64,000 nt of DNA, taken from sequence record MT446416.1. The stretch is one strand, 5' to 3'. The stretch is from Escherichia virus TH47. A program made the translations under genes and the position numbers. The notes under the pieces are model-generated. The model saw nothing but the letters and a program-made list of their open reading frames with translations, was not told the origin of the DNA and ran no database searches. Positions 3,932 to 46,433 of the stretch are shown here, in pieces. The first letter of the stretch is position 1; every line of letters begins with the position of its first letter.

Positions 3932-5428
3932 ATGACATACAGAATGTGGAAAAAAGGTAGAACCAATGATTACAAGTTCATTGACTCTGCCATAGCAGAA
4001 CAATACAACATCGGTGGTGTTGACATGTGGCTTTATGCCTATGTCGGACCAAAACAAGTCGCTGATAACACTGATTTATCATATGGCGGTGATTATTATG
4101 GTTCAGATAGTACCGTTGTGTCAAGCATTGGTGATTTAATTTTTGGTGACACTCCAAGTCGTAACTATAATCTCGAAGCTATCACCTTAAGTTGCGTCTA
4201 CCAAGTCCAAGAAGCAACTCCTGACTTGAAAATCCCAGGATTGTTCTTCAACTTTAACACTATGGACATCACAATTCATTATAACACAATGATTCAGCGT
4301 TTGGGAAGAAAAATTATGCCAGGTGACGTAATCGAACTCCCTAACTTACGTGATTTTGATGTACTTGGTAAAGATTCTGGTTTAAATCGCTTCTATGTAG
4401 TACAAGATGGGTTTAGAACATCAGAAGGTTACTCAGTTACATGGCAACATCACATTTACAAACTCCGTGTTAAACCTCTTACTGATTCACCAGAGTATTC
4501 AGACCTTCTAGGTAACAATAACTACCCTGATGACCCAGATGAACCAAACAACGGCAATGGTAATACTGATGATGGCTCTTCAGAGAACAGCAGCTATGGT
4601 AATGAAATGGACATTATGAACCGTATCATTATGCAAGCTGATGATGAAGTACCATACATTCATTTTACTAACGAACACTTGTTCGATGACAGACCAGATA
4701 CCGTTGATTTGTCTAAGTATATGCTAAATGGATACGAATTACCAGAGGAACCAGCAAATAAAATGTATTTCCTCAAGAAAACTTACCCAGTACTGAAAGA
4801 ACTATCTAATGATACATGGATTTCTGTAGAAGTCAAGCGTGGAACAATCTTTCCTCGCAAACCGATGGATGGTGACTTCTTCTTTAAAGAAAACGAGGCT
4901 GATGTCACTGGCTTCTCATTGTATCAATACGATAAATCTGCCAAAAAGTGGCTAAATTGTGATGTTGAGTATACTACAGAAAGCACACCACCACAAGGGG
5001 TTGATGATTTTTATATTGAATACAAAGAACCACACATTTATCAGTACTTAAATGGTAAATGGGGAGAACCAGAAGTAACTTACGTTAATGACCCATTCAC
5101 TTCTAATAGTGTTTATGGAAATATCGATTCACAACAAGATTATCGTCCTAAGATTCCTCCAGCACGAGGTACAGTTCCTGAAGGTAATATGTTCCCAAGT
5201 GATGCAGTTGATGGTGATTACTACTATCGTACCGATTATACACCAGTAACCCTATGGGAATACAGTGCATCCAAGAATTCTTGGGTGATTTTCGATTACG
5301 GTGGTAGAAAACCGTGGGAAGGTGCAGATCTTGCTCTAACAGAATTTGTTAATAGCCCGAACCGTGTACCATTACATGATGCAGTTAAACCTAATACAGC
5401 GTATCGTATACATAAGGATTCAGAATGA
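3932..5428 (+). CDS. hypothetical protein, possible virion (neck/tail completion) protein
   Basis: ORF with GGAGA RBS 6 nt before ATG 3932 (track starts at TTG 3920); stop overlaps next start (ATGA); no motif recognised. Confidence 0.6.
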   Translation: MTYRMWKKGRTNDYKFIDSAIAEQYNIGGVDMWLYAYVGPKQVADNTDLSYGGDYYGSDSTVVSSIGDLIFGDTPSRNYNLEAITLSCVYQVQEATPDLKIPGLFFNFNTMDITIHYNTMIQRLGRKIMPGDVIELPNLRDFDVLGKDSGLNRFYVVQDGFRTSEGYSVTWQHHIYKLRVKPLTDSPEYSDLLGNNNYPDDPDEPNNGNGNTDDGSSENSSYGNEMDIMNRIIMQADDEVPYIHFTNEHLFDDRPDTVDLSKYMLNGYELPEEPANKMYFLKKTYPVLKELSNDTWISVEVKRGTIFPRKPMDGDFFFKENEADVTGFSLYQYDKSAKKWLNCDVEYTTESTPPQGVDDFYIEYKEPHIYQYLNGKWGEPEVTYVNDPFTSNSVYGNIDSQQDYRPKIPPARGTVPEGNMFPSDAVDGDYYYRTDYTPVTLWEYSASKNSWVIFDYGGRKPWEGADLALTEFVNSPNRVPLHDAVKPNTAYRIHKDSE

Positions 5429-21794: not shown

Positions 21795-21801
21795 TAAAAA
21801 A

Positions 21802-21828
21802 GGGAGACATAAGTCTCCCTTTTCTTTT
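21802..21828. terminator. bidirectional rho-independent terminator
   Basis: stem GGGAGAC/GTCTCCC flanked by A-run and T-run between convergent fibre and thymidylate synthase genes. Confidence 0.65.
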
Positions 21829-22756
21829 ATACAGCCATTGGTGCTTTGATTGTTGGCATTGGATCGTAATTAACTAATTTGAAAGAATCCATAGTGAAAT
21901 CTTCAATATCAGTAATAGTAGGATCTAACCATAATTCTGGTAATGTACGTGGTTCACGTTGGAGTTGCTCTTTTACTTGTTCAATATGGTTTTGATAGAT
22001 ATGGCAGTCGCCACCATTCCAAATAAATTCACCAACATCTAACCCAGTAATTTGTGCAATCATATGAGTTAGTAGTGAGTAACTACTAATGTTAAATGGT
22101 ACACCAAGGAATAAATCAGCACTGCGTTGATGAAGAATACAACTTAGTTTACCCTGTACAACACAAAACTGCACAAAGCTATGACAGGGTGGCAAAGTCA
22201 TAGCATCAAGCTCACCAACGTTCCATGCACTTAGAATGTGACGACGACCGTATGGATCAGTATTGATACCTTCAATAACTTGTTTTAGCTGGTCAGTTAC
22301 ACGACGCATAATAACACCATGTGAACCAGTATAATCAATAACTTTATACCCTTTATCTTTTAGTTCTTGAATTTCTTCAGTACTGGAACTGAATTTATAA
22401 TCTTCCCATTCACGCCATTGTTTACCATAAACTGGGCCAAGCTCACCATCAGAATACCCAAGGCTTACACCTTGATTAAGGTAGTTGTCTGTCCAAATTG
22501 TTTTCTTTTCTACATCACGTGTCCCGTGTAAAATTTCACACAGACGACGCTCATCGTGAGAACCTTCAATAAACCATAACAATTCTGAAGTCATTGCTTT
22601 CCAAGCCAAACGTTTAGTAGTTACTGCTGGGAAACCTTCTTTTAGGTCAAAACGCATTTGTTGTCCGATTAGCTTGATAGTGCCAACACCAGTACGATCA
22701 ACGCTTTCGACACCTTGATCCAGAATTCTTTGATATAGTTCTTGTAGTTGTTTCAT
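21827..22756 (-). CDS. thyA: thymidylate synthase (ThyA/T4 td type)
   Basis: motifs RTGVGT, FPAVTTKRLAWK, ELGPVYGKQWR, ILSAWN, LPPCH, SADLFLGVPFNISSY and C-terminal PMAV; no intron interruption. Confidence 0.9.
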   Translation of the reverse strand: MKQLQELYQRILDQGVESVDRTGVGTIKLIGQQMRFDLKEGFPAVTTKRLAWKAMTSELLWFIEGSHDERRLCEILHGTRDVEKKTIWTDNYLNQGVSLGYSDGELGPVYGKQWREWEDYKFSSSTEEIQELKDKGYKVIDYTGSHGVIMRRVTDQLKQVIEGINTDPYGRRHILSAWNVGELDAMTLPPCHSFVQFCVVQGKLSCILHQRSADLFLGVPFNISSYSLLTHMIAQITGLDVGEFIWNGGDCHIYQNHIEQVKEQLQREPRTLPELWLDPTITDIEDFTMDSFKLVNYDPMPTIKAPMAV

Positions 22757-23349
22757 TTTACGTCCTTGAAAAATGTAATAAAGTGTTCCATGTGTTTTTG
22801 TGTAGCATTACGTGAACCAATCCCAGTCCAGTTACCGTGTGGTGCTGGTATTGAGAATGTTTCAGTAAACTCTTTCAGTACTGTATCATAATAAAATACA
22901 GAGCGAGTGTTCATATCATAACAATATATTTCTGGATTATCAACTGAATCCATATACATCTGTACTGCCCATGCAGTTCCACCTGAAACTTGCGTAGGTG
23001 ATGTAATATTTGCAATACAATATACTCTTTTAGTATTAAGTATCTGATAACTATTTCTTGCAAGTAATTTATATACATACGAACCGGGCTTCGGAACTGT
23101 TCGGCGTAAAGAGTAACATGCAATGTTTAATTGTTTTAATATTGAACTATCACAAAGGATATTGGATGGAATTTCTAATATAGTATTTTCATCTACGCTG
23201 CTTTGGTGACCCTTGAATGAAAAATTTATTACTTCAAATCCATTGTCTTTTGCATAGATAGAAAAAAGGCGGTCAGCACCTGCTGCCCCGCCACTGAAAC
23301 ATACATTAGATAAACCATTGATTGCTTCATCTAATTCTATTTTATTCAT
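22753..23349 (-). CDS. Rossmann-like SLOG/DprA- or nucleoside deoxyribosyltransferase-like protein
   Basis: N-terminal glycine-rich loop CFSGGAAGADRL; translationally coupled to thymidylate synthase (ATGA overlap); family assignment tentative. Confidence 0.4.
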   Translation of the reverse strand: MNKIELDEAINGLSNVCFSGGAAGADRLFSIYAKDNGFEVINFSFKGHQSSVDENTILEIPSNILCDSSILKQLNIACYSLRRTVPKPGSYVYKLLARNSYQILNTKRVYCIANITSPTQVSGGTAWAVQMYMDSVDNPEIYCYDMNTRSVFYYDTVLKEFTETFSIPAPHGNWTGIGSRNATQKHMEHFITFFKDVK

Positions 23350-23354
23350 TTATA

Positions 23355-24008
23355 TTATTTTGCTTTACGTTCTGCAAATGCCTGTTTAACTTTCTCAATT
23401 GCTTTGGTTTGTGAAATTCCTTCTGGGATTTCAATATAGAAAGTTTTGCTATCAGGTGCTACAGGTGTTGCTTGAACTTGTGGACGTAGAGATGGTTCTA
23501 AGTTGTAAGCACGTTCAAAGTGCTCTTTAGCCAACTGCTCATAACGTTGTGCATCTTTAAGTAGTTGCTCAACAATGGTAGCTTCTTCAACAGAAGTATC
23601 AACTTCTTGTGGCTTGAATGGGTTGTATTCTTTAACTTTACCATCTTCATGTTTTTTAGTATCATTATCATTGATTGCGTTGTTTAGAACATCAAGAGAA
23701 ATCTTACTGTTTCCGCCAACATGCATATCAATATCACAAGTACGTGCACGACGCAAATGTTGTAGATTATGAAGAACATCTAGCATTTTGCGACCGTCTA
23801 GATGACCAATCTTATGCATAACTTCCCACAAATCTACATTCGATTGACCTTGATTCATTACTAAATCTGCAACAGATTGAGCATATGCTTCAGGAAGTGA
23901 GTCGCGATAAACAATGAGACAATGTTCTGGATCATCAGGGAGTGAACGCCATACCACAAATACTCGTGAACCCGTATTACGTACTACACCAACGTGACGA
24001 ATAGCCAT
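23355..24008 (-). CDS. hypothetical protein
   Basis: 217-aa ORF with strong RBS AAAGGAGAA; no motif recognised. Confidence 0.55.
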   Translation of the reverse strand: MAIRHVGVVRNTGSRVFVVWRSLPDDPEHCLIVYRDSLPEAYAQSVADLVMNQGQSNVDLWEVMHKIGHLDGRKMLDVLHNLQHLRRARTCDIDMHVGGNSKISLDVLNNAINDNDTKKHEDGKVKEYNPFKPQEVDTSVEEATIVEQLLKDAQRYEQLAKEHFERAYNLEPSLRPQVQATPVAPDSKTFYIEIPEGISQTKAIEKVKQAFAERKAK

Positions 24009-24350: not shown

Positions 24351-25760
24351 TTAGCTACGTTGACGCTTTTTGTCAGCTTCATATTCGTAGTGTACAGTTT
24401 CGCCAAATGGTGCTTGTTTGTTAGGATTACTGTGGATAACAAACAGTGTCTTACAGTAATCAGGATCACCCCATGACTGCCACGGCTCACCATCGGTAAA
24501 CATAATAAGCTGTTTAGGCTTATAGTTGTCATGCTTCATATGAACCCATACTGCTTCAAAGTCAGTACCACCACCACCTTTCACTGGATATTCGAGAATC
24601 TTACTCTCTTCACCAGTTTTGTAATCTTTAACAGTATAAACTTCAGTATCGAACGTCATGATACGGATTTTAAATTGTTTAAACTGCTTAGTGATACCCA
24701 GTACTTCACTGATGAAATCACGGAGCATATCTTCAGAGATAGAACCGGATGCATCTAGTGCAATTGCAATATCAATATCATCATCTGGTTTCATGCCTGG
24801 GAAGATTGGATTCCCGTAGAATGAACCAGTACTACCAAAACCAGCACCCCATGAACGACGATTAGGACTTTGATAAGTTGCGTCAGACTTCAACCAGCTA
24901 CGCAGTGTGCGGTGAAGTTTGGAACGCCAGTCAATCTTAGGTTCTTTGAAGTTGTTAATCATACGTGCGATTTCAGCAGGAGTACCACCTGCACGAGCAG
25001 CATTCATCATTGCTGTTTTGAAATCATCCATATAATCACGTTTTTGTTTATCACTTGAACCACCTTCTTGACCTTCTTGTGGAACGTCATGCTGGTCGAT
25101 TGTTGTACCTTTGCCTTTACCATCTTTGATATCACCAAAAGTACCGCGTGATTTACCTTCACCCTCACCACTACCAGCCTGTGGATTTCCTTCACCTTCC
25201 CCGTCTTGATCCTGTTTATCTTCTTCTTCGAGAATGTTATAAATCTCTTCAGCAGTCATACCATCGTACTTTTTATCGTACAGCCATTGGCTTTGGATTT
25301 TACCAATTTTATCACGAACAAGAATCTGGTTAATTGCATAGTCAGCAGCACGGTTATAACGCTGCGGGTCACGCATACCACGACGCAAGAAGTGGTCATA
25401 TGCACAGTGAAGAATCTCATGACAGATAACTGCAATCAGGTTTTCATCAGTCAAACCTTCTGTCATTTCTTTAAGTTGTTCTTCAGTTACTTCAGGATGT
25501 TTCTCACGAATTGCTTCTTCGTATGCGGACTTTTTGGATTGGTCCTGAATACCCATGATGAATTCTACGTTGTAGAATAAATGCTTACCATCTACTGCCA
25601 AAGTACGACACCATGTATTGTTTGCAACTGGACGCAGACGAGAAGCCAGTACACCAAAGAATGGGAATGTTAGCATTAAAGATGTGCGAGCTAAGATCAG
25701 ACGATCTTGACATTCTTTCTGGAGAGCCGGAGTAACATCACTGAAACGTTTATCTGACAT
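24351..25760 (-). CDS. vWA-domain protein with N-terminal HExxH metallopeptidase-like domain (CobT-like)
   Basis: HEILHCAYDH (HExxH) plus MIDAS DASGS in DIDIAIALDASGSISEDM; GAGGAAA RBS; directly downstream of the AAA5 ATPase. Confidence 0.75.
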   Translation of the reverse strand: MSDKRFSDVTPALQKECQDRLILARTSLMLTFPFFGVLASRLRPVANNTWCRTLAVDGKHLFYNVEFIMGIQDQSKKSAYEEAIREKHPEVTEEQLKEMTEGLTDENLIAVICHEILHCAYDHFLRRGMRDPQRYNRAADYAINQILVRDKIGKIQSQWLYDKKYDGMTAEEIYNILEEEDKQDQDGEGEGNPQAGSGEGEGKSRGTFGDIKDGKGKGTTIDQHDVPQEGQEGGSSDKQKRDYMDDFKTAMMNAARAGGTPAEIARMINNFKEPKIDWRSKLHRTLRSWLKSDATYQSPNRRSWGAGFGSTGSFYGNPIFPGMKPDDDIDIAIALDASGSISEDMLRDFISEVLGITKQFKQFKIRIMTFDTEVYTVKDYKTGEESKILEYPVKGGGGTDFEAVWVHMKHDNYKPKQLIMFTDGEPWQSWGDPDYCKTLFVIHSNPNKQAPFGETVHYEYEADKKRQRS

Positions 25761-25835
25761 TTGTATTTCCTCGTTTAGTTAAGATAAAAGAAGGATACCA
25801 TGTGGTATCCTCCTTGTCAACACTCTTTTTAATTA

Positions 25836-27164
25836 TTAACCAAGAGAGCGTGCTTTACGTACTAGGTCAGAGTACTTCATAACGAAGTCTTTAAACGCTG
25901 GTACATCTTTAATCGTAATCGCTACTTTATGAAGCGTGATGGTACGAATCGCCAGTACTGCCAGTTCTGCTTGAGTTGCAGAGAAGTTATGGTCTAGGAA
26001 GGTGATGAAGTTGTTGCACAGCTTACCCCAATCTTCCACTGGTAGACGTTGTTCTTGCTTCTCATTGTAGAGGTCGATAATTTTGTAAACCAGATTCAGA
26101 GTGATGAAGTAGTTCGCGGAAATATCAAGCGAAGCATCAATCTCTTTAATCTCACCCTGTAGGATGGACATGGTATCTGGTAGTTTAGCTACGTTATCAA
26201 CATACTCGATGTATTCAGTTGCTACGCCTTCACCAACACGACCTGCAATCATCGCACGGAACACTTCTTTATCAATGTTCTTAACTTTCTTCAGATCTTC
26301 GTAGCGTGCTACTGCTTCCCATGAACGTGGAGAAGTACCACCACAGTGAGAAGGATCTTGTGGGCTAAGGGTGTTGAAGTGTTTAGCACCAGTGTTGTTG
26401 ATGAACGCAACAGTTGCTGGGTTCAAACGCTTGCCAATCGCATAATCGTTAATCCAATCTTGATGATAAGGAATCATTTCGATGTGGGTCATACGGTCAC
26501 GCAGTGGTGTAGCTAGAGAGAACGTTACACCGCCATCAGTTTCACGGTTACCTGCTGCGAGAATCAGTGCAGTCTTAGGTAGCTTCATCTCACCAACACA
26601 ACGGTCGAGGATTAGCTGGTAAGACGCTGCCTGTACAATCGGCATTGCAGAGTTGATTTCGTCAAACAGGATAACACCTTTCCAATCATCGGGCAATTTC
26701 AGTACTTTTGGTGCTGCCCACACAACTGCTGTTTCAGCGATGTAATCTTGTGCACTAGCCAGTTCAGATTCAATCAGTTGCTTACCATCCATATCAAGGA
26801 ACACTTTCTCTGGAACTGGAATACCACGAAGGTCACTTGGTTCAATCTGAGACAAACGGAAATCGATAAAGTTAGTGTCTTGGTCGATTAGTTTGGCTTC
26901 AAACGCTGCCAGTTCACGGCGAAGTTGATCGGCATTTTCAGTATCAGCTTCGATTTGTTGTTTCATGAACTCAATTTTTGCCACGTTATCTTTACGCAGT
27001 GGGTAGTTCTCATCAGCGTATTGACGTGCGATAGCAGATTTACCGATACCAGGGCTACCCCAAATCATCAGGCTATCTTGAATCATGTCAGCCAGTGCCA
27101 TTGCTTCTTTAGCTTTCTTAGGAGTCAGTTTTACGTTCAGGATATCGTTGTTTTGAGTAGACAT
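25836..27164 (-). CDS. MoxR/CobS-type AAA+ ATPase (AAA_5 family)
   Basis: Walker A GSPGIGKS, Walker B ILFDEINSA; AAGGAAA RBS. Confidence 0.8.
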   Translation of the reverse strand: MSTQNNDILNVKLTPKKAKEAMALADMIQDSLMIWGSPGIGKSAIARQYADENYPLRKDNVAKIEFMKQQIEADTENADQLRRELAAFEAKLIDQDTNFIDFRLSQIEPSDLRGIPVPEKVFLDMDGKQLIESELASAQDYIAETAVVWAAPKVLKLPDDWKGVILFDEINSAMPIVQAASYQLILDRCVGEMKLPKTALILAAGNRETDGGVTFSLATPLRDRMTHIEMIPYHQDWINDYAIGKRLNPATVAFINNTGAKHFNTLSPQDPSHCGGTSPRSWEAVARYEDLKKVKNIDKEVFRAMIAGRVGEGVATEYIEYVDNVAKLPDTMSILQGEIKEIDASLDISANYFITLNLVYKIIDLYNEKQEQRLPVEDWGKLCNNFITFLDHNFSATQAELAVLAIRTITLHKVAITIKDVPAFKDFVMKYSDLVRKARSLG

Positions 27165-27335: not shown

Positions 27336-27363
27336 ATTATATCACATCGTTCAGGCTTGTCAA
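27336..27363 (-). promoter_or_regulatory. sigma70 consensus promoter, proximal copy (TTGACA-N16-TGaTATAAT)
   Basis: exact -35 and extended -10 with 16-nt spacer and A-rich UP-like tract upstream on the minus strand. Confidence 0.65.
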
Positions 27364-27429
27364 CAACTTTTTTTTATTTCTTTTTCAATCTCACATCTTG
27401 TGATTTTGAAAACTTGCTTCGTGGTGGTC

Positions 27430-27457
27430 ATTATATCACATCATTCGGCGTTGTCAA
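27430..27457 (-). promoter_or_regulatory. sigma70 consensus promoter, distal tandem copy
   Basis: second copy of the same CATTATATCACAT-N8-TTGTCAACA module 94 nt upstream of the first. Confidence 0.65.
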
Positions 27458-39706: not shown

Positions 39707-41701
39707 TTAATATTTTTTTGTGTATTTTATATTACCAGAGTTGTAAATCTTATAATATCCCAATACATCACAGCAAATTTGTCTCTCAGTTAAGTTAATA
39801 TCATGACCTTTCTTGACCAATTTATGTTTTTGACATTTCTGACGTGAAATCCTCTCATGTGTTTGTGGGTCATAATAAAAATATCCGGGTTCTGTATAGC
39901 TATCAAACTCAAAGCCAAGAACTGTATAAAGATCACCACTACTCCAATCCATATCCGCATATGTCAATAATGATTGTGGATTATATACTGTTTCAAAATA
40001 TTTTAGTAATTTTGATGCACCACCAACAACTGTACCGGATGAACAGTATCTGATTAATTCATATTCATAGTTTTTATCAAACCTTGATTTACCAAAGGTC
40101 ATAACTGCAACTAAATCACTTCCATAGTAAAGTCCAATGTGAATACTTGCTTGTGCAACACCTTGAATATGGTGTGATTTAGTAAACATATTACTTACTT
40201 GTTTGTCTATATTTCTAACAGTACATTTTCTAGCATAAATTCTATTTGACACTAGAAGTTTATTCTTTAAACGTTCCTTGATAATTTTATTTGTTAATGG
40301 GTTATCCCATTCATCTTCATAAATGTGAATAAGATTCACCCCATGTTTTAAACAATCCAATACCTTATCTTGATGTTTAGTGGAATTTACATTTTCATCA
40401 TTATGCCAATACACACCATTAAATTCAATAGCTAGATTACGGTCTGGGATATACACATCCAACTCTTTAGGTTTCAGCACTGAACGGTCGTTTTCTATAA
40501 TTTGCATATTTTGTATTAATGATTTTATATAATCAACTAAATCTTTCTCTTTCAATGAATGACCATTATTTTTCTGACACTTACATTTCACTTTATGATT
40601 TTTATACTTACTATAAAACAATTCATCACAATACTCACACCAAAATGGGTATTCGTCTGTATTAACTTTCATCATTAGGTCGGTGTTTTCAAATAATGGA
40701 ATATAGTTTTTATCAATATTTGCAACAATGATATTATATCTTTCGTCTAGACGAGCAAGTGACATTTTCTCTTTATACTCATCAGTCTGTGAGTAGTGTT
40801 CTGAACCATATCTATTTTTTGTGGTTTCTTTCATTTTTTCAATGATAGAATTATTTTGGGCTGGGTGTTTTACACCATATCGCTCCACATTGGTATTATG
40901 AACTTTTTCCTGAACACTCATATTGCTCATTGGGTAAAATGAATTATACTTCAACGTGTTGGTGTTTTTTATTTTATCTTGGACAATTTTATTTGATAGT
41001 GGATTGCCACCATATCGTTCAAGATTTGTTTTATTGATTTTTTCACGAATCGTCGGTGATGATAAAGAATACTCAGCACCGTATCTTAATATATTTGTGT
41101 TTTTGGCTTTCTCTTTTACTTCATTTCTTTTGCTTTGGAATTCAACACCATACTTTTTTAAATTTGTTGCTTTTACTTTATTGAATATTTCAGAGTTTTG
41201 GTTTGGATATTCACAACCATATCGCTCTATATTAGTTTGTTTGATTTTATCTTTAGTTTCTGATGTTTGTAAATTAGATGAGACACCATAACGCTCAATG
41301 TTAGTTTTTTCTTTCTTTTGTTTTACTTCTTGTATTTGGGACACATTAGATACACCATACATATCCATTAATGTTGATTTTGTTTTATTAGTTCGATTTT
41401 TATAATACATTTCATGGCATACATTACATGTATTTTTCTTATTAATCACATAGTCATCACAAAATTTATAAAATCCTTTTTGGAAATTTTTGTATCTTGC
41501 TTTTTTTCCGCAATATGCAGTTGGAACGGTTGTTATATCATTCATGAACATATATAGAATTTTATATATTTCGAAATCAGTTTTTGGTTCTATTCCAAAA
41601 GTAGAAAGGAGAACCCTCACACGAGAGTCCCCTTTGTATAAATGTACCCATGAATTAATATGTTTTGACAACAAAAGTTTTTTTAATTCTTCATTGTTCA
41701 T
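39707..41701 (-). CDS. repeat-rich endonuclease-like protein with Vsr/DUF559-type PD-(D/E)xK domain (homing-endonuclease candidate)
   Basis: nine tandem ~29-aa repeats with core TN(I/L)ERYG; Cys cluster CEYCDELF...CKC; motif LDVYIPDRNLAIEFNGVYWH. Confidence 0.55.
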   Translation of the reverse strand: MNNEELKKLLLSKHINSWVHLYKGDSRVRVLLSTFGIEPKTDFEIYKILYMFMNDITTVPTAYCGKKARYKNFQKGFYKFCDDYVINKKNTCNVCHEMYYKNRTNKTKSTLMDMYGVSNVSQIQEVKQKKEKTNIERYGVSSNLQTSETKDKIKQTNIERYGCEYPNQNSEIFNKVKATNLKKYGVEFQSKRNEVKEKAKNTNILRYGAEYSLSSPTIREKINKTNLERYGGNPLSNKIVQDKIKNTNTLKYNSFYPMSNMSVQEKVHNTNVERYGVKHPAQNNSIIEKMKETTKNRYGSEHYSQTDEYKEKMSLARLDERYNIIVANIDKNYIPLFENTDLMMKVNTDEYPFWCEYCDELFYSKYKNHKVKCKCQKNNGHSLKEKDLVDYIKSLIQNMQIIENDRSVLKPKELDVYIPDRNLAIEFNGVYWHNDENVNSTKHQDKVLDCLKHGVNLIHIYEDEWDNPLTNKIIKERLKNKLLVSNRIYARKCTVRNIDKQVSNMFTKSHHIQGVAQASIHIGLYYGSDLVAVMTFGKSRFDKNYEYELIRYCSSGTVVGGASKLLKYFETVYNPQSLLTYADMDWSSGDLYTVLGFEFDSYTEPGYFYYDPQTHERISRQKCQKHKLVKKGHDINLTERQICCDVLGYYKIYNSGNIKYTKKY
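40624..41389 (-). repeat. nine tandem ~87-nt coding repeats (ERYG repeats)
   Basis: periodic K.K.TN.ERYG....Q motif in the translated product. Confidence 0.6.
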
Positions 41702-41727
41702 ATAGTTCTCTTTTTAAATGTTTAAAT

Positions 41728-43501: not shown

Positions 43502-43978
43502 TTATTTTATAATGTATAAGTGTTTTTCTGCATTAACCAGTCTGTGGTCAATGATTTCTTTGATAACGTTCCAGTTACCACCGCCTAAATCGGCTCCAAT
43601 TTTCGGGAAGTGTACATGAACAGTGCGTTCAACGTTACATAAGTAATTGAGTTGTTTGAAAACATCATCGATTGCATCATAACTCACATACTTAGAACCG
43701 TCATTACCATAGTACTTTTGGGTAATGCAGTTTGCGATAAGCAAATCATCACTTATAGAAGAATATGAAATTTGTCCTGTTCTTAGAAATCCCATTTCCT
43801 TTTCATATGCTTTATAATCATCATATGCCATCGGGTAACGATTTCTTAGTTCTTTTGCAAAACCCGAACCCATCTTACCCTGTGCATTACAACCATGAGC
43901 GATTATATGCAACGCGGTTTGATCATCAGTAACAGTGTTGAACAATTCAAACAAATTACCTAGGTGTTCATGTATCAT
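43502..43978 (-). CDS. macrodomain protein, TARG1/OARD1-like (ADP-ribose processing)
   Basis: motifs GNLF, LHIIAHGCNAQGKMGSGFA and FPKIGADLGGGNW align with TARG1 LAHCISEDCRMGAGIA and MPRIGCGLDRLQW; GGAGAA RBS. Confidence 0.75.
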   Translation of the reverse strand: MIHEHLGNLFELFNTVTDDQTALHIIAHGCNAQGKMGSGFAKELRNRYPMAYDDYKAYEKEMGFLRTGQISYSSISDDLLIANCITQKYYGNDGSKYVSYDAIDDVFKQLNYLCNVERTVHVHFPKIGADLGGGNWNVIKEIIDHRLVNAEKHLYIIK

Positions 43979-44560: not shown

Positions 44561-44808
44561 TAATTCCAGCGACCTTCTTTAAGACCTTCAACGAAACCAG
44601 TACAGCCACCTGGAACGTAAACATCGTTTACGAAAATTTGTGGAACCTGTCGTACTGGCTCGCCACATAGTTCAGATAGTTTAGCACCATCAATACCAGC
44701 GGTAACAATATCGATAAACTCCATATCAAATTTGTTATTTTCACATACTGCTTTTGCAGTGTCGCAGAATTTACAACCAGTAGTGCGACCATAAATTTTA
44801 ACTTTCAT
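44560..44808 (-). CDS. glutaredoxin/thioredoxin-like protein
   Basis: 82 aa with N-terminal CKFC redox motif and Grx-like length; AAGGGAAA RBS. Confidence 0.65.
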   Translation of the reverse strand: MKVKIYGRTTGCKFCDTAKAVCENNKFDMEFIDIVTAGIDGAKLSELCGEPVRQVPQIFVNDVYVPGGCTGFVEGLKEGRWN

Positions 44809-45208
44809 TTCTTTTCCCTTTATTTCGTTGAAACATCGTAACAGCCTTTATTATACTGTTACACATTCGTTCAGTCAAATACTTTTGACAATCTAGTACA
44901 TCAATGTACATGAACTTATCCAATTCTGGGTGACTTCTACCATATCGGTTTGTGTAAGTACTCTTACACTCTAACTCTTCTGGTATAGGCTTATCTTTGG
45001 CTGTATAGAAAAATAAAACTAAACGTTTCCCCTTTCTATACGATACATCACCAAGAAACAGAAGATCATCTTCATCGATTTCATATCCTGTCTCTTCGTA
45101 GCATTCGCGAACAGCAGCCTCTTTAAATGTTTCTGTACCTTCAGTTTTACCTTTAGGTAAGTCCCAGTGATTCTGTCCGTGTTGTATGCCCGATAAGTAT
45201 CTGACCAT
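44798..45208 (-). CDS. Nudix hydrolase (second copy)
   Basis: Nudix box GKTEGTETFKEAAVRECYEETG; short N-terminus, start uncertain (GTG/ATG at 45211/45208); extended -10 TGGTATAAT just upstream. Confidence 0.65.
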   Translation of the reverse strand: MVRYLSGIQHGQNHWDLPKGKTEGTETFKEAAVRECYEETGYEIDEDDLLFLGDVSYRKGKRLVLFFYTAKDKPIPEELECKSTYTNRYGRSHPELDKFMYIDVLDCQKYLTERMCNSIIKAVTMFQRNKGKRNES

Positions 45209-45317
45209 CACGATAAAATATTATACCACAACTATAACGCATAATCTTATCTCTTTATCATCAAGTGATGTTCAGATACTAGTAATTATATCAGAAGATG
45301 TTAACTTGTCCCAGCTT

Positions 45318-46433
45318 TTAGAACATTTGCTTGATTGCTTCAATACGCAATTCAGCAACAAAATCACGAATCTCTGATGTTTGGAGTTCACCATCTTTCA
45401 CTAACTGCTGAATATCAGGTAATTCAACATCAGTATAACGATCATAAACTTTAATAATCAAATCTTCAAGATCAGAATCAATTTCTTTGTTCAAAATGAA
45501 GTTTTCCAGTACTTTGTAAAGGAAATCTTCGCCACCATTGTTTTTGATATTCATCTCCAGTAAGATTTGTCCCATTTCAACGGGGGTCTTCTTACGGAAG
45601 GTTTTAATATCTTCACGGAAACGCTTGATGTAATTACTAAACTTCACGTACTTAACTGGAACCTTAATAGAACCATTAAGTACTGAATCATTATTTACTT
45701 CTTCATTTTCAAGAAGTACTGTCCATAAGAAATATGGTTTATATTCTTCTGTACAATTTGCAGCGATAGCATCAATTAATTCCAGACGTTTCTTGGTAAC
45801 TGGAACTGTAGTAAATGCCTTTTCGTAATAACCAAATTGTACCAGAGTTTTGATAAACTTGGAAGGGTTTTCTTCAGAAAGTGCTTTTTCGAATTCAACA
45901 AAAACACGATCTGGAACTAGATGGTCTAGTTCACCAGTACTAACCATATCTTTACACATTGTCATAGTATCATCATGGATTGTAAAGTCTGAGTAACGTG
46001 TAGCGAAACGTGCCAAACGTAGTACACGCAATGGATCTTCTTTAAAGTGTTCTGATACATGACGAAGTACTTTGTTCTTGATATCAGCTTTCCCGCCATA
46101 AGGGTCGATGTGAATCTGGAGTACTGGATCATACGCTATGCTATTTACCGTAATATCCCTTCTGTATAGATCTTGCTCTAGTGTCACGCCTTTAGTATTC
46201 ACTTCGAAGCCACCGTAGCCAGTACCAGTTTTACGTTCGGTACGTGCCAATGCGTGCTCATTACCCTCTGGACTTAGATACACTGGAAAATCCTTACCTA
46301 CTTGCTTATAGCCAATACTTTGTAAGTACTTAATATCGGATTCGGTAGCACCGACAATGACATAATCTTTGTCTTTTGCACGAATACCCATTAAACGGTC
46401 CCTCACATAGCCGCCCACCAAATACTTTTTCAT
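45318..46433 (-). CDS. tRNA nucleotidyltransferase (CCA-adding enzyme) / poly(A) polymerase head-domain protein
   Basis: N-terminal GGYVRDRLMG, DKDY and RRDITVNSIAYD motifs; GAGGAAGG RBS. Confidence 0.8.
   Translation of the reverse strand: MKKYLVGGYVRDRLMGIRAKDKDYVIVGATESDIKYLQSIGYKQVGKDFPVYLSPEGNEHALARTERKTGTGYGGFEVNTKGVTLEQDLYRRDITVNSIAYDPVLQIHIDPYGGKADIKNKVLRHVSEHFKEDPLRVLRLARFATRYSDFTIHDDTMTMCKDMVSTGELDHLVPDRVFVEFEKALSEENPSKFIKTLVQFGYYEKAFTTVPVTKKRLELIDAIAANCTEEYKPYFLWTVLLENEEVNNDSVLNGSIKVPVKYVKFSNYIKRFREDIKTFRKKTPVEMGQILLEMNIKNNGGEDFLYKVLENFILNKEIDSDLEDLIIKVYDRYTDVELPDIQQLVKDGELQTSEIRDFVAELRIEAIKQMF

Follow-up and report, generated by a model that had tools for sequence, protein, structure and literature searches.

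We analyzed a 64,000-nt stretch of Escherichia virus TH47 (sequence record MT446416.1; the whole stretch is referred to as the window) and focused on a 198-aa open reading frame (ORF) that overlaps the start of the thymidylate synthase gene, thyA. The modeled structure supports the product of this ORF as a member of the SLOG superfamily, and we propose to assign it to the YpsA-like clade, as the model is both YpsA-like and cpYpsA-like. In our preferred reading, to which we give a probability of about 40%, the protein would act on free nucleotide monophosphates (NMPs), plausibly by breaking the N-glycosidic bond, as part of how the phage regulates the deoxynucleotide pool. The TH47 locus alone is ordinary, being one more near-identical copy of a gene deposited for related coliphages. 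What is new here is the likely permuted topology, the closeness to the structure 3imk, the size of the family, the dominance of deoxynucleoside monophosphate (dNMP) kinase genes over genes related to nicotinamide adenine dinucleotide (NAD) or ADP-ribose (ADPr) among its neighbors, and the finding that two further phage orders carry the family within giant, virion-type proteins. With ~2,800 clusters across jumbo, T4-like, N4-like and crAss-like phages, the family is a large annotation gap, and either of two answers, deoxynucleotide-pool control or removal of ADP-ribose-type signals, would annotate thousands of phage genes.

The SLOG gene and its overlap with thyA

The 198-aa ORF is real and conserved and not a chance ORF, because it has homologues (95, with E down to 4.6e-129 in a word-indexed search), 2,802 family clusters, a block of invariant residues and a modeled fold with a predicted local distance difference test (pLDDT) score of 96.7. 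Its TGA stop codon (22755..22753) and the thyA ATG (22756..22754) share bases in the sequence ATGA (Table 1). The thyA ATG is preceded, 6 nt upstream, by the Shine-Dalgarno sequence AAGGA. The original prediction, made from the sequence without database searches, described a glycine-loop protein fused in an operon with thymidylate synthase. The glycine loop (CFSGGAAGADRL) and the coupling to thymidylate synthase through the ATGA overlap were confirmed, and the arrangement reads as two overlapping, translationally coupled genes, not as a protein fusion. The coupling is not strict, since small genes intervene in GAP32-like phages. In these phages the block is conserved with a SLOG protein ~50% identical (the orthologue P0036 is 52% identical), extra small genes flank the SLOG gene on both sides, and a 114-117-aa gene is located between the SLOG gene and thyA.

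The thyA ORF encodes a thymidylate synthase of full length (Pfam PF00303, 338 bits, E 3.6e-101; PHROG 160, E 1e-115). It retains the catalytic Cys of the PPCH motif and the Asn of the PFNI motif, and by these motifs it looks like a canonical enzyme of the deoxyuridine monophosphate (dUMP) type. Base swapping and a link to DNA modification, both raised by the original prediction, found no support in gene context or motifs, and we rejected them as roles of the SLOG protein.

Fold and family assignment

An AlphaFold2 model of the 198-aa protein was built on an alignment of 40 diverse homologues (alignment A1, the source of all conservation data below) and reached a predicted TM-score of 0.92. Structure comparison gave 3imk the highest figure (12.4, with 127 residues aligned at 22% identity), ahead of the other structures compared. 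The Type-II LOG 5wq3 (7.9), TT1465 (7.7) and ShosA 8zva (7.6) followed, and then came the YgdH/PpnN-type 9us2 (7.4), DprA 4ljk (7.2), YpsA 2nx2 (7.0), the MoCo carrier protein 2iz5 (6.6), the N-deoxyribosyltransferase 6evs (4.3) and MilB 4ohr (4.2). When Foldseek was run against the PDB, 3imk was the sole credible match and every non-permuted SLOG structure was missed. The model exhibits a three-layer alpha/beta Rossmannoid architecture with SLOG members as its closest structures, and the family has the conserved Gly-rich polar loops of the superfamily, with invariant residues in SGGAxGAD, SGGT and GIGSR across the 40 members. The SLOG/Rossmann-type fold that had been called from the sequence was therefore correct; neither a non-Rossmann fold nor an unrelated family as best match emerged.

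3imk, which we take to be the founding structure of Pfam PF12694 cpYpsA ('circularly permuted YpsA', formerly MoCo_carrier), is a 'putative molybdenum carrier protein' from Syntrophus aciditrophicus and has no established function of its own. The phage protein exceeds 3imk by 40 residues in length and has a helical insert (approximately residues 60-102) and a beta-hairpin (150-164). The link between the two is structural only, because none of the sequence searches of the PDB, whether with the 198-aa protein alone, with the profile of the family or with a fused member, returned 3imk or any meaningful match.

At the level of sequence families, residues 4-164 matched positions 23-184 of the 191-position profile of PHROG 768 ('DprA-like DNA recombination-mediator protein') with E 4.2e-27. 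None of the Pfam models reached its threshold with the 198-aa protein. The YAcAr family (Pfam PF10686, formerly DUF2493) matched residues 15-44 below threshold (19.0 bits vs a cutoff of 28.2, E 1.3e-3), as it did in 16 of the 40 members. For cpYpsA (gathering threshold 26.2 bits) the window protein gave no match, one of the 40 members matched at E 0.076, and related fused members scored 14.7-19.5 bits, under the threshold. A search of NCBIfam with the 198-aa protein returned no match.

The original prediction had lumped together DprA, LOG, nucleoside deoxyribosyltransferase and dNMP N-glycosidase types as relatives, and this grouping was not supported. Neither the window protein nor any of the 40 members matched Pfam LOG, and the LOG signatures, PGGxGTxxE with its catalytic Glu and GGGxGxMG, are not found; the matching loop, VSGGTAWAVQM, carries no Glu. 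Nucleoside 2-deoxyribosyltransferases and dNMP N-glycosidases (DNPH1, MilB) are not the closest relatives. DprA is not the nearest structure, and no protein reached the 29.6-bit threshold of Pfam DNA_processg_A (DprA/Smf, PF02481), the best E among the 40 members being 0.0063.

This last result bears on the product name carried by PHROG 768 and by GenBank annotations, according to which the protein would be a DprA-like mediator of recombination that binds single-stranded DNA (ssDNA). DprA/Smf proteins have been suggested as extra ssDNA binders in jumbo phages (Iyer et al. 2021, PMC7824862), and in Caulobacter phage Cr30 the gene comes after the gp46/gp47 recombination nuclease genes. Against this stand the subthreshold Pfam scores, the absence of additional DprA domains, and neighborhoods in which recombination genes are not recurrent (39-locus census, see below). 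Compared with DprA/Smf and with ShosA, the DprA-like antitoxin of the Shosha defence system, the phage protein is probably permuted, single-domain and set in another genomic context. We consider a DprA-like function very unlikely; the functional label of PHROG 768 is annotation only, and the name 'DprA-like recombination mediator' is probably misleading.

Conserved motifs and probable circular permutation

The invariant polar and Gly residues group in four motifs (Table 1). First, SGGAxGAD (residues 19-26) contains the invariant G20, G21, A22, G24 and D26, of which G24-A25-D26 forms a GxD signature. For the YpsA clade, a GxD/E motif after a glycine-rich strand is predicted to bind the substrate (Brzozowski et al. 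2019, PMC6459960). Second, in LLxRNxxQ, R98 and Q102 are invariant and L95, L96 and N99 nearly so, which makes the residues of this helix candidates for ligand binding or for the active site. This motif and a block from R83 to P86 both fall within the helical insert. Third, G123, T125 and A128 are invariant in VSGGTAWAVQM, which is placed like the 'SGsxxTA' of DprA and the 'PGGxGTxxE' of LOG, without the LOG glutamate. Fourth, TGIGSR near the C-terminus holds the invariant G176, I177, G178 and R180. Besides N99, the nearly invariant polar positions are R83, Q130, D134 and S179.

Ordinary, non-permuted SLOG/DprA domains begin with a 'GSR'-type strand and loop. Since the corresponding strand and loop (GIGSR) sits at the C-terminus of the modeled phage protein, the protein is likely circularly permuted. 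Two structure aligners, both bound to chain order, favor 3imk. When the C-terminal segment was moved to the front, the alignment to the DprA Pfam profile (positions 48-104) appeared or was extended in three of five proteins, all below threshold.

The primary classification of the YpsA-like clade within the SLOG superfamily is reportedly that of Burroughs et al. 2015 (NAR). The phage protein resembles YpsA and YAcAr proteins in its GxD/E signature after the Gly-rich strand, and differs from them in its likely permutation, in having motifs of its own (LLxRNxxQ, VSGGTAWAVQM and TGIGSR) and in scoring below the Pfam gathering threshold.

Family size and occurrence in giant proteins

A hidden Markov model scan of 1.84 billion representative proteins returned 2,802 clusters (50% identity) at E ≤ 1e-3, of which 783 were at E ≤ 1e-30. 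The family is nearly all phage-derived, and the majority of its proteins stand alone, at 175-210 aa. Among annotated phages it occurs in Rak2/121Q/GAP32/CBB-type jumbo phages, Xanthomonas phage XaC1, Agrobacterium phage Atu_ph07, Sinorhizobium phage Phosso, the T4-like Caulobacter phage Cr30 and a 735-kb uncultured phage.

The domain is also embedded in giant proteins, where it keeps all motifs. These are the virion RNA polymerase of the N4-like Klebsiella phage Pylas, whose copy of LLARNSYQ reads LLQRNYYQ, two giant ORFs of crAss-like phages, and metagenomic proteins (Table 1). Searched against PHROGs, the giant proteins matched PHROG 768 only, and against Pfam they gave just two subthreshold matches, ARM_PUB and Nuc_deoxyrib_tr, both in the protein P0236. 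RefSeq names the crAss-like giant ORFs 'DprA-like DNA recombination-mediator protein' by this single domain. One further member (P0137) is fused to a histidine phosphatase domain, and the extra regions of the C-terminally extended forms of ~300 aa and of most mid-size fusions had no Pfam match. Reported viral SLOG fusions include one with guanylate kinase (PMC9503650).

Gene neighborhoods of the family

For a census of neighbors, 79 IMG/VR loci were reduced to 39 clusters at 70% identity and the flanking ORFs were scanned against Pfam. A T4 gp1-like dNMP kinase (DNMK) gene is located immediately upstream on the same strand, usually overlapping, in 14 of the 39 loci, and within 4 kb in 21. thyA is a neighbor in three loci, in the Rak2-like and GAP32-like groups only. 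A dUTPase, a dCTP-deaminase-like protein, a guanylate kinase, NADAR, NAD synthase and ART-PolyVal were found once each. The neighbors are thus enriched for deoxynucleotide enzymes, which makes a link to deoxynucleotides plausible beyond the lone thyA overlap; the nucleotide role put forward in the original prediction is plausible in general terms, while its base-swapping part found no support. In this respect the family also differs from bacterial YpsA, which is found with phosphoribosyltransferase, NAD-salvage and conflict-system genes, whereas the phage genes are found mainly with dNMP kinase and thyA.

In a neighbor-joining tree, a single large and deep clade holds the DNMK-linked members and a second one the thyA-linked members, and a third, which includes the Pylas copy, has neither neighbor. 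In many other phages the SLOG gene is located between the DNMK and tail sheath genes; in Phosso and in the Atu_ph07 group the gene order is DNMK, SLOG, tail sheath.

Proposed function and alternatives

In the Rossmannoid class, the loop that follows strand 1 contacts the nucleotide, and residues of the active site come after strand 3 (Iyer et al. 2022, PMC9503650). We infer a nucleotide pocket because the conserved-residue pattern of the family matches this description. In the mechanism that we favor, the stand-alone, probably circularly permuted domain of this PHROG 768 member of the YpsA-like clade would use the SGGAxGAD and SGGT loops, the C-terminal GIGSR loop and the R98-N99-Q102 helix to build a pocket that takes a phosphorylated ribo- or deoxyribonucleotide. 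Expressed from what appears to be an early operon read by the host polymerase, with its translation coupled to that of thymidylate synthase, the protein would find its target in the free NMPs of the infected cell. Ligand binding would be followed by cleavage of the N-glycosidic bond, as in catalytic SLOG/LOG relatives, and the protein would shape the deoxynucleotide pool together with thymidylate synthase and dNMP kinase. The data show the gene, its overlap with thyA, its fold and family and the statistics of its neighborhoods; the ligand class, any catalytic activity, the expression timing and the physiological role in this mechanism are what we infer for the SLOG protein.

The LOG/PpnN NMP N-glycosidases (phosphoribohydrolases), which cleave between base and ribose in an NMP, are the natural model for such a nucleotide-pool enzyme. 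They share with the phage family a Gly-rich, phosphate-type loop at a helix N-terminus and a conserved Arg located in the helix that precedes the fourth strand. The phage family differs in being probably permuted and phage-only, in its lack of a Pfam LOG match, and in the missing PGGxGTxxE glutamate.

Several observations weigh against the preferred reading. First, with SGGTAWAVQ in place of the LOG loop, the catalytic glutamate has no counterpart. Because of this absence LOG-type catalysis is not directly supported, and the protein may therefore merely bind its ligand. Second, the neighbor signal is not independent across loci, as the DNMK-linked and thyA-linked members each form a clade of the tree. 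Part or much of the DNMK signal may be inherited synteny in T4-like and jumbo myoviruses, because DNMK sits in a tail-gene block, also in the window. Third, some contexts fit a role immediately after injection equally well or better: the third clade has neither neighbor, and the domain also occurs inside an N4-like virion RNA polymerase and inside crAss-like ORFs of 4,328 and 5,801 aa. At last, the window also encodes Macro-like and Nudix proteins, and of two distant metagenomic homologues one is located near NAMPT and NMNAT-Nudix genes and the other near Tpt1.

The embedded copies, the Macro-like and Nudix genes and the distant homologues would be at home in a counter-defence function, in which the SLOG domain would either serve as a sponge or sensor for the cyclic ADP-ribose (cADPR) isomers or ADPr derivatives made by TIR/Thoeris-type systems of the host, or cleave their ribosyl-adenine bond. 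Degradation or sensing of cADPr-type signals is the published prediction for viral YpsA-like SLOGs, based on co-occurrence with Macro, NADAR and Nudix (Iyer et al. 2022, PMC9503650). The same work places viral SLOG domains mainly in the YpsA-like clade, to which the 198-aa protein is also assigned here by structure, and states that they are experimentally uncharacterized. An injected virion RNA polymerase and giant crAss-like ORFs would suit the earliest stage of infection, and NADAR, NAD synthase and ART-PolyVal do occur among the neighbors. However, these three single cases are minor against the DNMK counts and the other deoxynucleotide enzymes, and no fusion to Macro or NADAR was found among the scanned fused members. 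We regard counter-defence of this type as a possible but rather unlikely alternative, with about one chance in four.

The missing glutamate would also suit a protein that does not catalyze at all, namely a carrier or regulator. As the MoCo carrier protein does with its cofactor, it would bind a nucleotide or a cofactor of the pterin/folate type, and it would hand this to, or regulate, thymidylate synthase or the phage enzymes of dNTP synthesis. Translational coupling to thyA would then match the stoichiometry of the two proteins. Yet the adjacency to thyA is confined to one clade and is interrupted by the 114-117-aa gene in GAP32-like phages, and a thymidylate synthase partner is hard to square with domains in giant injected proteins. 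The invariant charged residues D26, R98 and R180 are typical of enzymes, though compatible with tight binding. Such a carrier or regulator appears unlikely to us, more so than the counter-defence function.

A speculative reading that would unify these ideas concerns dNMPs themselves. T5 Dmp, a 5'-deoxyribonucleotidase, clears dNMPs at an early stage of infection. Its genomic occurrence correlates with that of phage dNMP kinases, and it gives protection from Kongming immunity, which is based on deoxyinosine triphosphate (dITP) (bioRxiv 10.1101/2024.12.20.629578). The SLOG family, too, goes along with DNMK, and some phages carry it within giant, probably injected, proteins. The resemblance is one of functional analogy only, as fold and chemistry are unrelated, T5 Dmp being a Mg-dependent phosphatase with the catalytic residue D22. 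By this analogy, SLOG proteins of PHROG 768 might be a hitherto unrecognized class of phage enzymes or sponges for dNMPs or base-modified nucleotides, for example dNMP N-glycosidases, that counter dITP-based (Kongming-type) immunity. They would remove host-derived or unwanted dNMPs alongside the phage dNMP kinase and thymidylate synthase, and, where injected within giant N4-like or crAss-like virion proteins, would do so before phage gene expression. We found in the literature no characterized phage SLOG anti-defence protein and no SLOG-dNMP link. We hold this reading to be improbable, slightly more so than the carrier, and if true, dNMP-directed counter-defence would raise the interest of the family.

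Relatives of the TH47 locus and their annotation

Megablast of 21827..24008 matched 40 phage records. The best relatives, at 98.7-99.2% identity, are the Escherichia jumbo phages WPEC5, EC.P1, fEgEco12, Ecwhy_1 and CMSTMSU (354-386 kb), and the 121Q/PBECO4/phAPEC6 group is ~84% identical over the same region. By sequence identity, the window is from a Rak2/121Q-like jumbo coliphage, ~99% identical to WPEC5. Deposited phage genomes already encode a protein 98.5% identical to the 198-aa SLOG protein. The gene is thus already deposited and loosely annotated, since the near-identical records name it 'hypothetical protein', 'DprA-like DNA recombination-mediator protein' or 'DUF2493 domain-containing protein'.

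In CMSTMSU (MH494197.1), the SLOG gene matches at two places, over residues 29-193 only and at 83% identity, and the thyA region carries two thymidylate synthase coding-sequence annotations. This split match and the double annotation suggest that the record contains frameshifts or sequencing errors at SLOG/thyA.

Operon organization and other genes in the window

The leftward unit runs from an AAA ATPase through a DUF2201_N and VWA protein, a 109-aa protein, a 217-aa protein and the SLOG protein, the fifth of six, to thyA. Both promoter-like sites of Table 1 lie in the intergenic stretch of 320 nt that precedes the ATPase gene and have a perfect TTGACA-16-TATAAT match (12/12) with a TG extension. 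These perfect sigma-70 consensus matches suggest that the unit is transcribed by the host RNA polymerase early in infection.

Table 1 Features of the window and giant proteins of other phages that carry the SLOG domain
Feature	Position or size	Strand	Basis or detail
Bidirectional intrinsic-terminator-like hairpin, just after thyA	21796..21825		13-bp stem and T run, between convergent genes
Thymidylate synthase (thyA), 309 aa, final gene of the unit	21827..22756	minus	Pfam PF00303; PHROG 160
ATGA overlap of SLOG stop and thyA start	22753..22756	minus	sequence read
198-aa SLOG-fold protein ORF, PHROG 768 family	22753..23349	minus	ATG start; sequence read
TGIGSR, residues 175-180, C-terminal strand and loop	22810..22827	minus	alignment A1; strand 174-178, then helix 184-191
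VSGGTAWAVQM, residues 121-131, second Gly-rich loop at a helix N-terminus	22957..22989	minus	alignment A1; strand 115-117, helix 125-135
LLARNSYQ, residues 95-102, helix before the fourth strand	23044..23067	minus	alignment A1; helix 91-102 in the model
CFSGGAAGADRL, residues 17-28, strand then Gly-rich loop	23266..23301	minus	alignment A1 and sequence read
217-aa protein, 5 nt upstream of the SLOG start	23355..24008	minus	PHROG 15894 (function unknown)
DUF2201_N metallopeptidase-like and VWA protein	24351..25760	minus	Pfam and PHROG matches
Second terminator-like hairpin, between the ATPase and VWA genes	25788..25815		
MoxR-like AAA ATPase	25836..27164	minus	Pfam and PHROG matches
Two tandem sigma-70 promoter-like sites	27336..27457 (27457-27430 and 27363-27336)	minus	consensus match
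Tail sheath gene, 887 aa, directly downstream of DNMK	35961..38624	minus	
T4 gp1-like dNMP kinase (DNMK)	38719..39399	minus	Pfam DNMK, 42.7 bits
2.0-kb segment missing from WPEC5	39706..41727		
664-aa ORF in the 2.0-kb segment	39707..41701	minus	Pfam DUF7487
Macro-like protein	43502..43978	minus	20.3 bits, just under the 22-bit cutoff
NUDIX hydrolase	44798..45211	minus	45.8 bits
PolyA_pol/CCA-adding-type nucleotidyltransferase	45318..46433	minus	
Virion RNA polymerase, Klebsiella phage Pylas (N4-like, NC_049444)	3,819 aa		domain at ~residues 981-1144, locus 4001..4492
Giant ORF, crAss-like phage cr109_1	4,328 aa		domain near C-terminus
Giant ORF, crAss-like phage cr130_1	5,801 aa		domain near C-terminus
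Metagenomic giant proteins	1.7-4 thousand aa		domain at various positions

The block of ATPase and VWA genes is also present in GAP32-like phages, and the 217-aa gene accompanies the SLOG gene in Rak2-, 121Q- and GAP32-like phages. The GenBank record of WPEC5 names the 217-aa gene 'thymidylate synthase'. This label is probably a mis-annotation, because the product has no Pfam thymidylate synthase match and PHROG 15894 is of unknown function. We rejected two identities for the 217-aa gene, a dNMP kinase that has diverged and an additional thymidylate synthase, since it has no P-loop and no Pfam support. The PHROG label 'HNH endonuclease' for the DUF2201_N and VWA protein conflicts with its Pfam domains.

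No second SLOG paralogue was found in the window by tblastn or profile search. The PolyA_pol/CCA-adding-type nucleotidyltransferase gene neighbors the Macro-like and NUDIX genes. In WPEC5, only 4 nt separate the two flanks of the missing 2.0-kb segment, and these flanks share 86-89% identity with the window. The segment, which falls between the dNMP kinase gene and the one next to it, may represent a mobile insertion.

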